From sequence record NC_041936.1: DNA of 64,000 bases. The stretch is one strand, 5' to 3'. The DNA is from Escherichia phage ECD7. The translations under genes were made by a program, and so were the position numbers. The notes beneath the pieces were generated by a model. The model ran no database searches. It saw nothing but the letters and a program-made list of their open reading frames with translations, and had not been told where the DNA came from. This document shows, in pieces, positions 16,549 to 62,802 of this stretch; position 1 is the stretch's first letter, and the number at the start of each line of letters is the position of its first letter.

Positions 16549-18025
16549 TTAAATGTCAAACAGGTCCGTAAGCGATGCCACCTTTTCATATTGCAGCTTT
16601 GCAGCCGTGGTAATGTTCTCCAGTGGTTTGACGAAAGTCTTATTAAACAACAAAGGCCAGTCTAACCACTTCAACACTTCTGATTCAATTTCTGGCGGAA
16701 TACGAGTACCAGACAACCAACCAAAACAGATTTCTCCAAACGGATTTCGATCTTTAAGCGGTACAATCATAACCTTCTCGCCTTCACGAATCGGATCTAG
16801 TCCGAATTTTCGAGCATTACGATTATAACACAATACACTCTTAACCGCATACGGACAACCCTTAATCGGATACCCGTTTGAATCGCTGTATTTCTGTAGG
16901 TTGTTTGCAGATGATACCGCAGCAACCTCAAGATAATCAAGTTTTCTAAACTCTTGCTCAAAAATACCGTAGTATTCCTGTAGCGATTCTTCCCCTTCCT
17001 GCAACATACGGCGAATACATTCTTTCAGTGATTTCTGACATGCTTTAGGGGTGGAGCTACGTTGCGTTTCCAAGCCCATGATTTTTAGCTTAGGTTCAGC
17101 AAAGCGCGTTCCTTCCATATCCCAAACATTAAGAGCATAACGCTTTTTACCAGTCCAGAATCCACCGATACCCGCAGATTTCAACGGAGGACCAGCAATT
17201 GCCTCACGGTCCATAAACATCAAGTGCTCATAGTTATTCATGTACTCGCATAACTCGCGATATCCCTTGTCGATAATAGGTTCCATTCGATGTTTACCGA
17301 AATTATCAAGGAAGTCAACAAGTTTTTCGGTATCGTCGAAACGGTCTTCCCCGCCAACCTTATCAACAACATTGTTAACCAGCACATAAACGGAGTCAGT
17401 ATCACAATAACGAACATATGCAAAATCAGTTGTTCCGCAAAGCTCGTTTAAGTATTCGTTAATCTTACGCTCAATCCACTGAATTGCAAGCTGACCAAAC
17501 AGTGTGATCGCACTAGCGTTACGGAGATCATAAAAACGGAATTTAGGATTCCCCAACGCACCATAAAGGGAGTTGATCAAAACTTTACGAGAAAGCTGGT
17601 TTGTATTGCACAAGATCGACTCGTCTTTACATTCTTCCAGCAATTTCTCTAAGGCATCTTTACTTAATTCAGAAAGCATCGATTTAAACGCTTCGTCAAA
17701 GTCGTGACGCACTTCAACGCTATAGCTAATGGTTCCCCCATAAACATGATTTTCATCGTGTAGAATCGCTTTACATAGTTCAGCATTGCGATCACATGCC
17801 AGCATCATATTTTTGTACTGCTTACGCTGATCAAATACCTTTTTAATCTCAATAGGTACGATACCATGAATATCTTTTCGATACATCCACCCGTTAGGCG
17901 AGCAAGAATACTCATCACTCGGACGTGGTGCAGTTTTATTGATATATTCGTGCATCGGTGCAGCATCAAAAGATCCAGCGATTGTTTCAGGCGAAATATT
18001 AACCTGACGGATGATTGATGGATAC
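16549..18025 (-). CDS. 43: DNA polymerase gp43, exon 2 (motif A YPS onward; palm/thumb)
   Basis: Frame open from 18025 (YPSIIRQVNISPET...); LINSLYGALGN, YCDTDS, KKRY motifs; stop at 16549-16551. Confidence 0.9.
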
Positions 18026-18165
18026 CATTATGTTCAGCGCGGTTCGCTACTCCCGCGCCCGTTCTCTTGCGAACTGCTACATGTCACCATGTAGATCAGA
18101 CTATATCACATTCTCATAGAGAATCCTGCCATTTCGAATCGCTTGATTCTACTCTACTCGGTTCG

Positions 18166-49099: not shown

Positions 49100-49125
49100 A
49101 CGAAAAAGCCACCCTTTCGGATGGC
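49100..49125 (-). terminator. intrinsic terminator
   Basis: Minus: GCCAUCC-gaaag-GGUGGC then UUUUUCGUUUUU. Confidence 0.65.
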
Positions 49126-49359
49126 TTTTGATTATATTTTATTCACGTCCATTTGTATAGTAGTGTTTGAATCGACCTTTGCTAAACTCGTTAAACATAG
49201 TAACCAATTTACCATCCCTTTCCAATGATAACCCTTCCTCGTCTTAGATGGGTCTTCCGATTCGGCAGTAATTGAACACGCGAAAGTATGAGGAAGCCAA
49301 ATGGTTGTGTTAATGCTAGTATTCTTTTACTTCTGGTATGTATCCCAATGTGACTAACA

Positions 49360-50051: not shown

Positions 50052-50095
50052 CATTCCCCCAGATTAAAAATATTCAGTTATATTTATAATCTGGG
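50052..50095 (-). promoter_or_regulatory. late promoter TATAAATA within a 10-bp stem hairpin that pairs with the SD
   Basis: Minus: CCCCAGATTATAAATA...TAATCTGGGGG then ATG; arrangement resembles the T4 soc/e regulatory logic. Confidence 0.55.
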
Positions 50096-58676: not shown

Positions 58677-59003
58677 TTAGAAAGAAACAGTTTTCAAGAA
58701 ATCCAGATTTTTAGTACCGAAAACAGAAAAGTAGTGTTTTCCTTTTTCGGTTTTAGAGAAAGCGATTGTCTTCTCTACATGGTGACGGAAGCCAGACAGA
58801 CGATCACCCAGGTCAAGGCGGCAAGCGTAAGTAGTGCCGTTTTCGAAAGTAACCTCGATTTGAGTTTTGTCATATTCGCTTTCATAGGCTTTTGCTGCCG
58901 CGTCCTGTGCTTTACGCTCGAAGTCTTCGAAGTGGAATACTTCGTTTGCGTTAGCGAATACAGAAGATTCAGAGAAGATAACTTTAACAGATACTGGTTT
59001 CAT
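58677..59003 (-). CDS. hypothetical protein
   Basis: 108-aa ORF after AAGGAG. Confidence 0.45.
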   Translation of the reverse strand: MKPVSVKVIFSESSVFANANEVFHFEDFERKAQDAAAKAYESEYDKTQIEVTFENGTTYACRLDLGDRLSGFRHHVEKTIAFSKTEKGKHYFSVFGTKNLDFLKTVSF

Positions 59004-59776: not shown

Positions 59777-59962
59777 TCAGAAATATGCAATATAGTTTGC
59801 CAGTCCTACAGAGTCATCATTCGGCATTGCTTTTACCGCCAGTTCAAACCCTGCTTCAACTTTCTGTTTAGCGGATTCTTCGTTATAACCCCAGATGACC
59901 AGAATAGCTACTACGTTTTCTTTGCTTACTGCTTTCAGTGCTTTAGTGATGCGACGTGCCAT
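59777..59962 (-). CDS. hypothetical protein
   Basis: 61-aa ORF. Confidence 0.35.
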   Translation of the reverse strand: MARRITKALKAVSKENVVAILVIWGYNEESAKQKVEAGFELAVKAMPNDDSVGLANYIAYF

Positions 59963-60006
59963 AATTTGATTCTCCGTTTAAGAAAGTGTGTTTCGTTTCG
60001 ATGGGT

Positions 60007-60038
60007 GTATTATGCTATAGGCGTGATCTGGTGTCAAC
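60007..60038 (-). promoter_or_regulatory. sigma70-type early promoter (PeSL-like)
   Basis: Minus: TTGACA-17nt-CATAAT. Confidence 0.55.
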
Positions 60039-60060
60039 AACTTTTTTAAAAATTTTAGGC

Positions 60061-60087
60061 AATAAAAAAGCCACTCCGAAGAGTGGC
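60061..60087 (-). terminator. intrinsic terminator
   Basis: Minus: GCCACUC-uucg-GAGUGGC then UUUUUUAUU. Confidence 0.7.
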
Positions 60088-60237
60088 TTATAGGGAAGGT
60101 AGCGAATCTTCCTTGTCTCCAACCTGCTAGCGGCCTAGCAAGTGAATGCTTTAGCGTACCGGATCACCCCATACGCTGTAATAAATGCGGCTAGGTGACG
60201 TCCAAATCATTCTAACCGCGCTGTCTTTAGTTCACTA
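60088..60237 (-). ncRNA. candidate small structured RNA (late promoter to terminator, no ORF)
   Basis: TATAAATA at plus 60239-60246 (minus strand), about 150 nt with several 6-bp hairpins, longest ORF 14 codons, ends at terminator 60061-60087. Confidence 0.4.
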
Positions 60238-60456
60238 TTATTTATATCGCTTTCTCTCGCGACGTTTTTGATCTTCTTCCTTGATAGAGTTAAACGCATC
60301 AAAAAGACACATGACACTGATAATGAACATAACCGTATTTTCTACGATATCCCACGGCTTCGCATCAGTACAGATCCCCCAAACGGTAAGAAATGCAAAT
60401 AGTGCAGAAGAGATCACAAGCATGATACTTGCTAAGATATAAAAAGTCATTTTCAT
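60238..60456 (-). CDS. small hydrophobic membrane protein
   Basis: 72 aa. Confidence 0.4.
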   Translation of the reverse strand: MKMTFYILASIMLVISSALFAFLTVWGICTDAKPWDIVENTVMFIISVMCLFDAFNSIKEEDQKRRERKRYK

Positions 60457-60647
60457 GGTTTTACCTCAATTCTTCGATATTCATCACACATCCACGCAGT
60501 AAGCAAGAATCCCAGCACATAAGCAACAAAATACGTTAATGCTTCTTCTGGTTTCGTGCTATGTATCATCAGTAAACCAGCGAGAACGGTCTTAACAATT
60601 ACATTTAAAATAATTAGCCACGCAAATAATTTCATCGTTTGCCCCAT
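60453..60647 (-). CDS. small hydrophobic membrane protein
   Basis: 64 aa. Confidence 0.4.
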   Translation of the reverse strand: MGQTMKLFAWLIILNVIVKTVLAGLLMIHSTKPEEALTYFVAYVLGFLLTAWMCDEYRRIEVKP

Positions 60648-60959: not shown

Positions 60960-61202
60960 TCATAGATCACAGAGCCATCTGAAAGCACCACATAAAGCGA
61001 GCAGAATACTAGGTATAAACGAGACTAAAACAAGTTGGCAAAAATCATCTAAGGTAACACCGGAATAGCTACCTACTGTAACAACACCGATCATCAGACA
61101 CAGAAAGAAAACAAATGCAATCAGAAACAAAGTATTGCTAAACAGTTTAGTGATCATTAGACACCCCACGACGATCAATTTCAAAAACTTTTTTATCATC
61201 AA
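60960..61202 (-). CDS. small hydrophobic membrane protein
   Basis: 80 aa. Confidence 0.4.
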   Translation of the reverse strand: MMIKKFLKLIVVGCLMITKLFSNTLFLIAFVFFLCLMIGVVTVGSYSGVTLDDFCQLVLVSFIPSILLALCGAFRWLCDL

Positions 61203-61350
61203 CGAAGCATGTCACAACTGCCTCGTTGACTTCCGCAAATTGTTGTGTTACCCACTTAAGGTCAGAGCGAAACAATGTTCTATTAATAACAAATGTTTTA
61301 CCGCTCTTATCCTTACCCATAAATTTTGCTTTAACCATATCCAATTCCAT
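61147..61350 (-). CDS. hypothetical protein
   Basis: 67-aa ORF. Confidence 0.35.
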   Translation of the reverse strand: MELDMVKAKFMGKDKSGKTFVINRTLFRSDLKWVTQQFAEVNEAVVTCFVDDKKVFEIDRRGVSNDH

Positions 61351-61543: not shown

Positions 61544-61579
61544 GGGGGTATCTTACTACCCCCGTTTCATGTTGTCAAC
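61544..61579 (-). promoter_or_regulatory. sigma70-type early promoter (PeSL-like, GGGGGTA stem-loop)
   Basis: Minus: TTGACA-17nt-TAAGAT. Confidence 0.55.
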
Positions 61580-62068: not shown

Positions 62069-62533
62069 TTACAGTTTGGTCGTCCACTCCAGGTCTAGAT
62101 CTTCGACATACTCATGAGATCGGACAATCTCTAAATCGAACTCTAGGTCAGTGCCAAATTTACGCGCACCAACATCATAAGAAAGCGTGATATGCGGTAC
62201 ATATTCAGGATAATCCCACGTCGCACCTAAAGCAGTGCCGATATCGTGTCTGAATTGCATGTAGTCGCTTTCAAATGCCAACACAAGCGCATTAGTACCG
62301 GATTGAGTTTCAAACACTTTCAGATGACACAGAGAGCCTAAAAACTTTTCACCCTCTTCCGGGATAAACGGAACATAGACACGAGAATATAAGATAGTGC
62401 TATGCAGTTTATCACGAGGAACAGCATTAGGCAGATCGTAGAACTCCTGCAATTTTTCAATGCGGTCTAGTGTATCCTCAGTGAATTTAACCGCAGCATA
62501 TGTACCTTTAACGGATTCTCGAAACGGGGTCAT
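62069..62533 (-). CDS. 2H phosphoesterase-family protein, Acb1 (gene 57B)-like candidate
   Basis: Two H-x-T-x motifs (KLHSTILY, VPHITLSY); sits next to 57A and gene 1 as T4 57B does; ATG 62531-62533. Confidence 0.55.
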   Translation of the reverse strand: MTPFRESVKGTYAAVKFTEDTLDRIEKLQEFYDLPNAVPRDKLHSTILYSRVYVPFIPEEGEKFLGSLCHLKVFETQSGTNALVLAFESDYMQFRHDIGTALGATWDYPEYVPHITLSYDVGARKFGTDLEFDLEIVRSHEYVEDLDLEWTTKL

Positions 62534-62535
62534 AA

Positions 62536-62802
62536 TCAAGCCTCCGTGATCAGTTCTACTTCCTCTTTATCGTCTTCCGCTGCTTCGTCTTTAGGGAGAA
62601 GTGCTTTCACTTCTTCGACAATCGCATCAAGGGAAACAGTGCCGTTTTCGTCTGGCTGAATACCCAGAATGCGTACCAGTTCCATCAATACACGCTCACG
62701 ATCTTTCAGTTGGCCTTCTAAGAATGCGGCCTTTTCTTGAGTGTCAAACAGACGTACTTTCAGGACATTAATCATTTGTTCATGCTGATTGGACATATTC
62801 AC
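62536..62802 (-). CDS. 57A: tail fiber assembly chaperone gp57A-like
   Basis: 88 aa coiled-coil, LKVRLFDTQEKAAFLEGQL resembles T4 gp57A; synteny. Confidence 0.6.
   Translation of the reverse strand: MNMSNQHEQMINVLKVRLFDTQEKAAFLEGQLKDRERVLMELVRILGIQPDENGTVSLDAIVEEVKALLPKDEAAEDDKEEVELITEA

Follow-up and report, generated by a model that had tools for sequence, protein, structure and literature searches.

A conserved, structured non-coding element at the 3′ end of the dmd operon of Krischvirus phages

The dmd operon of Krischvirus phages ends in a 148-nt non-coding element that is folded, under selection and read on the gene strand. We judge it to be a functional RNA of some kind, with a probability of about 0.8. 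The element occupies 60090-60237 on the minus strand of the window, the 64,000-nt stretch of phage DNA analysed here, where an initial annotation had noticed ~150 nt of non-coding sequence between the stop codon of ORF72 and a strong terminator. That annotation saw the signature of a small RNA with its own late promoter. The non-coding, structured, terminator-ended and minus-strand character of the region holds up and is now joined by evidence of selection, whereas a separate, late-promoter-driven RNA is not established. Our preferred interpretation, held tentatively and at somewhat less than even odds, is a small RNA derived from the 3′ untranslated region (UTR) of the dmd-operon transcript that acts in trans, probably via a protein partner.

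Genomic setting and architecture

The window derives from a Krischvirus, an RB49/Phi1/JSE-type T4-like coliphage of the family Straboviridae. Around the element (59950-60500), it shows 100% identity with Escherichia phage vB_Eco_TB34 and 97.7-99.8% identity with the other listed Krischvirus records, GEC-3S and Phi1 among them. Genes on the minus strand run from gene 1 (dNMP kinase) through 57A, an Acb1-family gene and small ORFs to dmd (61150-61350), whose product was identified as Dmd, and then to five hydrophobic ORFans. The last of these, the small ORF72 (60238-60456), matches phrog_15168, a group with no known function; after it come the element, the terminator, an early promoter and ORF61 (59777-59962; DUF7421). 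The Acb1-family gene lies ~2 kb upstream of the element, and the region is hyperplastic in ORFans. An early promoter at 61550-61578 on the minus strand (10/12 in a promoter scan), equivalent to Pe:60244 of RB49, heads an operon consisting of a 52-aa ORF, dmd and the five small membrane ORFs, with the element at its end as the 3′ UTR of ORF72. ORF72 was found only in Krischvirus, and the element always lies directly downstream of it. Only three minus-strand gaps of at least 120 nt without an ORF of at least 40 aa exist in the 64 kb, and the element fills one of them.

The consensus fold comprises four hairpins followed by the terminator, with pair probabilities of 0.85-0.98 for the hairpins. 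Three had been picked out in the initial annotation and proved real: AGCGUAU/GUACGCU forms H2, UGCUAG/CUAGCA the core of H3 and GGAAG/CUUCC H4. The fourth and largest, H1 (60187-60219), had been overlooked and appears in both the MFE and consensus folds. Upstream of it is a 5′ leader (60220-60237) made of a second stop codon, TAG, and then GUGAACUAAAGACAGC; it is unpaired in both folds and has a single variable position, 60225 (G, A or a gap). In the RNAalifold consensus, H1 consists of an 8-bp stem (GCGGUUAG/CUAGCCGC), an internal loop, a 4-bp stem (UGAU/GUCA) and the loop UUGGAC. Its mean pair probability is 0.98, all 12 pairs are invariant in 15 variants, and its sole change is C/U in the apical loop (60200). 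An AU-rich linker, AUUUAUUAC (60178-60186), is unpaired in all folds, varies at one position (60179; A, G or U) and may be a site of RNase E-type processing.

H2 (60153-60177) has a 7-bp lower stem, a short upper stem and a hypervariable apex at 60163-60170. H3 (60118-60146) is formed in the consensus fold by 12 bp with one bulged U and the loop GCCG; its mean pair probability is 0.91, and its eight upper pairs are invariant. At the foot of H3, before H4, lies GGAG (60117-60120), by its sequence a candidate RegB motif. GGAG is the motif cut by the RegB endoribonuclease in T4-type early mRNAs (PMC3014915), and a RegB homologue is annotated in the same genome. H4 (60094-60112), also in the consensus fold, closes an invariant 9-nt loop, AUUCGCUAC, with a mean pair probability of 0.85. 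With the idea of a CsrA sponge in mind, we counted three GGA motifs in the body (four with the terminator), compared with ~2.3 expected per 148 nt. The body and terminator together fold with a z-score of -4.0 (0/200 shuffles as good) and the body alone with -2.8. Values of -3 to -4.6 also occur in nearby stretches of 150 nt, coding sequence included, and the energy of folding by itself therefore cannot settle the matter.

The strong terminator reported earlier is confirmed. A terminator scan placed it at 60060-60089 on the minus strand, with a 9-bp stem and UUCG loop (AAGCCACTC-TTCG-GAGTGGCTT at 60089-60068) followed by T6AT, the U6AU tail of the transcript. It has zero variable columns, is annotated in GEC-3S, TB34, Makalu_003 and G2248, and corresponds in RB49 to a TransTerm confidence-100 terminator (58720-58737, between ORF118 and ORF117) predicted in 2006. 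Beyond it, at 60009-60037, is an early sigma-70-type promoter on the same strand (TTGACA, 17 nt, CATAAT; scan 11/12) that is annotated in GEC-3S and was predicted for RB49 in 2006 as Pe:58699, score 43.6. This promoter serves the next cassette, that of ORF61, and lies outside the RNA. The segment 60089-60009 has the composition of a PeSL, the mobile stem-loop and early promoter module of RB49 and Phi1 (Arbiol et al. 2010, PMC2839356): a stem-loop, an AT-rich tract and, in front of an ORFan, a consensus early promoter. Recombination at such cassettes is documented (PMC2839356). The terminator and early promoter are therefore already known, both having been predicted for RB49. The 148-nt body, in contrast, falls outside the PeSL definition: it forms no part of the ~100-bp PeSL consensus, is single-copy per genome and is unmentioned in PMC2839356.

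Distribution, constraint and pairing

The body is present once per genome in 57/57 GenBank Krischvirus records, at 96.6-100% identity, and in ~10 metagenome contigs (from IMG/VR, JGI metagenomes and a protein collection), in some of which the amino-acid identity of ORF72 drops to 81-83%. Most GenBank records leave it unannotated, and a few automated annotations put a hypothetical CDS there. No similar sequence was found in the other phages searched. With blastn at E up to 10, no match appeared in 5,426 complete E. coli genomes or 72,556 plasmids, and the GTDB genomes held no exact match of a 21-mer; on these grounds we rejected a host or plasmid origin. Neither the window nor the phage genomes contain a paralogue or antisense copy. 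Nor did a covariance model trained on 15 variants (R1) detect another copy in the window or any match at eleven distant IMG/VR loci. Searches for more divergent homologues returned little: a single divergent contig from IMG/VR, scanned for three DNA patterns and for two flanking proteins, three contigs from a metagenome scan, and six clusters at 83-93% identity from a protein search. Searching with ORF61 led only to T1-like siphoviruses, all without the element.

We measured diversity across 16 aligned sequences, each with ~900 nt of context. Third-codon-position diversity was 0.127 in ORF72, 0.081 in ORF64 and 0.044 in ORF61, compared with 0.025 over all 148 nt of the body, 0.011 outside the H2 apex and 0 in the terminator. 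The body minus the H2 apex is thus 4-12 times less diverse than the flanking third codon positions (0.011 versus 0.044-0.127), which places it under purifying selection. Counting variable columns gave the same picture: 9/134 in the body versus 38/72 third positions in ORF72 (Fisher p = 2e-13) and 15/61 in ORF61 (p = 8e-4). In two contigs (L004 and L006), ORF72 is only ~80% identical, whereas the element retains 90-98% per 60-nt window. The switch from fast to slow evolution falls at the ORF72 stop codon in several lineages. Regional identity is nonetheless a mosaic, and the high-identity block continues into ORF61 (95-98% versus L006), so recombination of a recently exchanged block could account for part of the conservation. 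Even so, the body is four-fold less variable than ORF61's own silent sites.

Conservation is not confined to the stems. Unpaired columns are as conserved as paired ones (9/68 versus 9/78 variable), which would fit sequence-specific contacts, with a protein or within a tertiary fold, better than stacked protective hairpins or a simple seed. Judged from the alignment, such dense conservation beyond the stems suggests protein binding or a compact tertiary fold. The H2 apex is the exception, with ten versions that include 1-2-nt indels and a per-site diversity of 0.23-0.5. Either unconstrained slippage in its G run or diversifying pressure could produce this pattern.

Substitutions in the stems mostly preserve pairing. 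Pairs are kept in 99.5% of alignment cells, compared with 28-47% after shifting the partners by one to three columns. H2 is the only helix with covariation, at one pair (G-C/G-U/A-U) that two sequences have changed on both sides; two further H2 pairs show A-U/G-U and G-C/G-U switches, and H4 has one A-U to G-U change, in L006. A single main-stem pair is broken (lower stem of H3, phage kaaroe, C to A at 60144), and in two variants the short upper stem of H2 also lacks one pair. In the comparison with homologues that the initial annotation had proposed as a check, changes in H2 and H4 keep pairing, but only one pair is double-sided, and H1 and upper H3 are invariant, which confines covariation support to H2 and H4. 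The covariation score, which according to the tool's own warning should not be read as a probability, was reached by 6/500 shuffles. The uniformity of the family keeps formal covariation weak, and H1 and upper H3 are uninformative because their pairs never vary. We consider the H2 fold well supported and the H4 fold plausible; those of H1 and H3 are thermodynamic predictions only.

The substitutions also identify the strand. All one-sided stem changes produce G-U on the minus strand and an A-C mismatch on the plus strand, and in each of the 15 variants the sense strand gives the more stable fold, with a mean advantage of 7.4 kcal/mol over the antisense strand. The strand-specific wobble and the better sense fold indicate that the RNA reads in the direction of the genes. 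Together, the pairing-preserving stem changes and the low diversity point to a selected, sense-strand RNA.

Coding, tRNA and late-promoter readings

The region does contain ORFs longer than the 14 codons given as the maximum in the initial annotation, although neither is credible: a 19-codon ATG ORF (60210-60151) and a 35-codon TTG ORF (60122-60015) that continues through both terminator and promoter. Owing to the 1-2-nt indels at the H2 apex, the ATG ORF is 15, 19, 24 or more than 54 codons long depending on the variant. All four or five of its substitutions are non-synonymous (T to M; Y to F or C; S to D or G), and its ATG sits inside H1 without a Shine-Dalgarno sequence. We rejected a coding reading on the basis of this unstable length, the exclusively non-synonymous changes and the buried start. 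We also rejected the 47-aa CDS annotated in UPWr_E1, which exists only through a C-to-T change that makes an ATG.

The earlier failure to fit a tRNA cloverleaf was borne out by ARAGORN, which called 0 tRNA or tmRNA genes in the whole window, and by the lack of any Rfam tRNA match in 59900-60500 even at E up to 10. An Rfam scan, the route to a known family that had been suggested earlier, came back empty, with 0 matches at gathering thresholds across the whole window (Rfam 15). The best sub-threshold scores, against their thresholds, were RNAI at 22.8/47, EF3314_EF3315 at 21.3/100 and STnc100 at 19.7/47, all driven by the terminator. A 10-nt stretch of the element, CGGUUAGAAU, presumably resembles the D-arm of E. 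coli tRNA-Asp. A tRNA-Asp relic was rejected because this 10-nt match is not significant after multiple comparisons and no cloverleaf forms.

The proposed late promoter is the least secure point of the initial annotation. As first noted, the ORF72 TAA stop codon (60240-60238) is overlapped by a T4-type late-promoter-like octamer, TATAAATA (60246-60239, minus strand). The octamer matches exactly the sequence that such promoters carry at -13 to -6. It is kept in 15/16 variants. The three silent positions in TAT-AAA-TAA are invariant, while 53% of ORF72 third positions vary; we estimate the probability of this invariance arising by chance at ~0.1. The window contains 4 matches to TATAAATA versus 5.4 expected by chance, all 4 on the minus (gene) strand, and the other 3 are placed 24-40 nt upstream of a Shine-Dalgarno sequence and ATG. 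Using a wider-context model, Nolan et al. (2006) predicted 17 late promoters for RB49. The element's site is not one of them; of the window's three further exact sites, two are likewise missing and the equivalent of the one at 50081 is listed. In the metagenome contig MAVA01000028.1 (L012), 14 nt (TATAAATAATAG) are deleted, a new TGA stop is used, and the RNA body is unchanged. Because L012 lost TATAAATAATAG with its body intact, the RNA can be maintained without the octamer promoter. The late-promoter claim thus keeps its exact, widely retained octamer and is weakened by the chance-level count, the absence from the RB49 list and the deletion in L012; on sequence grounds, a late promoter of its own is unproven for the element. 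Our literature search found no Krischvirus RNA-seq, Northern blot or transcriptome. In any case, the element is the 3′ end of the early polycistronic transcript from the promoter at 61578-61550.

Candidate functions and relation to known RNAs

In the interpretation we favour, the element would be made early as the 3′ end of the dmd-operon mRNA, initiated at 61578-61550 and stopping at 60089-60068. Optionally, a late transcript starting from TATAAATA would be ~172 nt long, spanning roughly 60233 to 60062. A stable 3′ fragment of ~110-175 nt would accumulate, carrying all four hairpins or H2 to H4, the terminator hairpin and the U tail. Its 5′ end would stem from the TATAAATA promoter or from an endonuclease cut in the AU-rich linker or at GGAG. 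We infer that this fragment is released as a separate RNA and would act in trans as a 3′-UTR-derived small RNA, probably through a protein. Consistent with such an origin, the element directly follows the final ORF of the dmd operon and runs up to the intrinsic terminator of that mRNA. Enterobacterial small RNAs usually have just such a 3′ module, a strong terminator followed by a U tail. Base-pairing targets did not emerge from the window: in RNAduplex comparisons with its 198 translation-initiation regions, five accessible segments and the whole RNA scored no better than shuffled sequences, and the complement of the H2 loop is not present in the window.

The strongest rival, which we nonetheless think unlikely, is a purely cis-acting 3′-UTR element whose hairpins shield the dmd-operon mRNA from 3′-to-5′ exonucleases or tune or insulate the PeSL terminator. 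The element invariably forms the 3′ end of this one operon and is not found apart from ORF72, it adjoins the confidence-100 terminator, L012 keeps the body without TATAAATA, and no trans target was found among the 198 initiation regions, all of which suits an action in cis. A stabiliser, however, needs stems, yet the unpaired columns vary no more than the paired ones. Moreover, the other annotated PeSL terminators in the window lie close behind their genes, and gaps of at least 120 nt number only three in 64 kb.

Another alternative, which overlaps with the small RNA that we favour, is a decoy for a host or phage protein, or an anti-defence RNA, that would be expressed together with Dmd and Acb1, with the H2 apex as its contested surface. 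We regard it as improbable. Its appeal comes from the shared operon with dmd, the Acb1-family gene upstream, the location within a hyperplastic ORFan region, the densely conserved unpaired positions, and a diversity at the H2 apex (0.23-0.5) that exceeds the mean at synonymous-like sites (0.04-0.13). The apical variation lies in a G run with indels and could be mere slippage, however, and we found neither similarity to a known antitoxin, CRISPR-repeat or tRNA decoy RNA nor a link to any defence system. Bolder still, and a long shot in our estimation, is the idea that T4-type phages here yield their first non-coding RNA with a regulatory or anti-defence role, a compact molecule that would be made with Dmd and again late from a gp55 promoter. 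It would bind and neutralise some component of the host, for instance a defence nuclease, a toxin, an RNA chaperone or an RNase, with the H2 apex as an arms-race surface.

Similarly slim are the chances of a neutral relic, a decayed gene or tRNA spread recently by PeSL-mediated recombination. The mosaic identity, the 95-98% identity of the adjacent ORF61, the recombination documented at PeSL cassettes (PMC2839356) and the tRNA-Asp likeness of CGGUUAGAAU are what one might look for in such a relic. But the body has four-fold fewer variable sites than ORF61 third positions (9/134 versus 15/61, p = 8e-4), the conservation boundary coincides exactly with the ORF72 stop in several lineages, stem substitutions keep pairing, and no tRNA or pseudo-tRNA was called.

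We give very little weight to a cis antiterminator of the HK022 put type, through which transcripts started at TATAAATA would read through PeSL terminators and express downstream cassettes late: the order of promoter-like motif, conserved hairpins, strong terminator and same-strand genes would suit it, but no search revealed similarity to put RNAs, the promoter is unproven and dispensable in L012, and antitermination is not a known feature of T4-type late transcription. Scarcely credible, finally, is a DNA-level element (an origin or a recombination or nuclease target) or a micro-ORF (MIWTSPSRIYYSVW...), for although the palindrome-rich sequence could be a protein-binding site and the first 14 codons of the ORF starting at the 60210 ATG are nearly invariant, the G-U wobble on one strand only and the 7.4 kcal/mol advantage of the sense fold oppose the former, and the missing Shine-Dalgarno sequence, the ATG buried in H1, the variable length and the non-synonymous nature of every substitution oppose the latter.

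Among known RNAs, the closest in layout are the 3′-UTR-derived small RNAs of enterobacteria, which arise from an internal promoter (DapZ, MicL) or by processing (CpxQ, SroC). Like them, the element sits at the 3′ end of an mRNA whose intrinsic terminator and U tail it shares, with a promoter-like motif over the end of the upstream coding sequence, an AU-rich linker and a length of ~110-175 nt. It differs in being phage-encoded and limited to one genus, in being conserved over the whole molecule rather than concentrated in a seed, and in having a candidate promoter of the gp55-type late class instead of a host sigma type.

In biological setting, the closest counterparts are rnaC and rnaD of T4 (species 1 and 2), stable non-coding RNAs of 119-139 nt with no assigned function, which share with the element the strand and, broadly, the genome interval downstream of genes 1 and 57A. 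Homology is not apparent: MAFFT alignment gave no meaningful identity, and R1 found nothing in T4 66000-76500 at E up to 10. rnaC and rnaD follow the tRNA cluster, are cut from tRNA precursors and have a tRNA-like 3′ end, whereas Krischvirus lacks tRNA genes (0 tRNAs in RB49, PMC1524935) and the element ends in a terminator. ColE1 RNAI (RF00106) also has three consecutive stem-loops with spacing similar to that of H3, H4 and the terminator, a likeness of architecture only (22.8 bits versus a gathering threshold of 47, E = 0.06 in a 600-nt search), and the element has no plasmid-origin context. We therefore regard it as a candidate for a new non-coding RNA family restricted to a single genus.

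According to a 2010 review, T4 had no functionally characterised riboswitch or trans-acting small RNA, rnaC and rnaD had no known role, and candidates might come from the genomes of T4's relatives (PMC3014915). The significance of the element is bounded by one narrow genus and by the comparative nature of the evidence, and we consider it moderately interesting because T4-type phages have lacked a characterised regulatory RNA. Krischvirus phages are used in phage therapy cocktails. Small, single-copy and placed at a natural cassette boundary, the element should be easily manipulated genetically. The antitoxin Dmd is encoded in its operon, counter-defence genes abound in the surrounding region, and the element, universal in its genus, under selection and mostly unannotated, offers a candidate regulatory RNA for T4-type phages.

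Natural variation at the RNA locus

A natural deletion removes the late-promoter-like octamer that precedes the RNA body, the 148-nt structured non-coding stretch at 60090-60237 on the minus strand. In L012, a metagenome contig (MAVA01000028.1), 14 nt equivalent to window positions 60235-60248 are missing, which takes out TATAAATAATAG. Together with a 2-nt insertion upstream, this deletion gives ORF72 (60238..60456, minus strand) an altered C-terminus and a TGA stop. Despite the loss of TATAAATAATAG, the RNA body of L012 is intact and unchanged. In phage UPWr_E1 (PP418985; locus L022, 901-1044), an annotated 47-aa CDS covers the RNA body together with the terminator and early promoter that follow it. 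Its ATG arises solely from a C-to-T change in hairpin H2, and because the reading frame depends on this single substitution, the CDS is probably an annotation artefact. Across the RNA body region, the window is 100% identical to TB34 (OX001802). Elsewhere, ORF coordinates differ from those annotated in TB34 by offsets of 44-547 nt, from which we infer that the two genomes are close kin but not identical.

Other ORF-free stretches in the window

A second long ORF-free stretch of ~230 nt lies at 49120-49359 on the minus strand and ends in a terminator and an early promoter of the PeSL type, the mobile stem-loop and promoter cassette of RB49 and Phi1. Since matching DNA in RB49 and MIZ records is annotated as rI.-1, a 'starvation-inducible transcriptional regulator', the ECD7 gene here may be disrupted or differently called. 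Conservation of this stretch is below that of the RNA body, with 53 records at 95-99% identity, none at ≥99% and partial coverage in at least three records; folding gives a z-score of only -2.0. One further gap, at 17970-18113 on the minus strand, completes the set of three in the window that reach 120 nt or more and lack any minus-strand ORF of 40 aa or longer. It lies upstream of an ORF ending at 17955, with a GC content of 0.47 and a minimum free energy of -0.27 kcal/mol per nt.

Genomic neighbourhood

Many metagenome assemblies of the locus (contigs L004, L007, L008, L009 and L010) end 170-250 nt past ORF72, within the PeSL or shortly beyond it, as expected if assembly graphs collapse at the PeSL promoters because their sequence is repeated. 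These breaks restrict how much context of the RNA locus metagenomes yield. Just downstream of the RNA body, a 61-aa DUF7421 gene (59777-59962, minus strand) encodes a product with 72-80% protein identity to genes of ~100 phages of E. coli and Shigella whose genomes measure ~50 kb, presumably T1-like siphoviruses. This identity indicates that a cassette carrying the gene has been exchanged between unrelated phage groups. An Acb1-family gene (PF23474, anti-CBASS; 62069-62539, minus strand) occupies the place of T4 57B, and dmd (61150-61350, minus strand) follows in the next operon. The RNA body thus has counter-defence genes as neighbours, within a hyperplastic region of ORFans.
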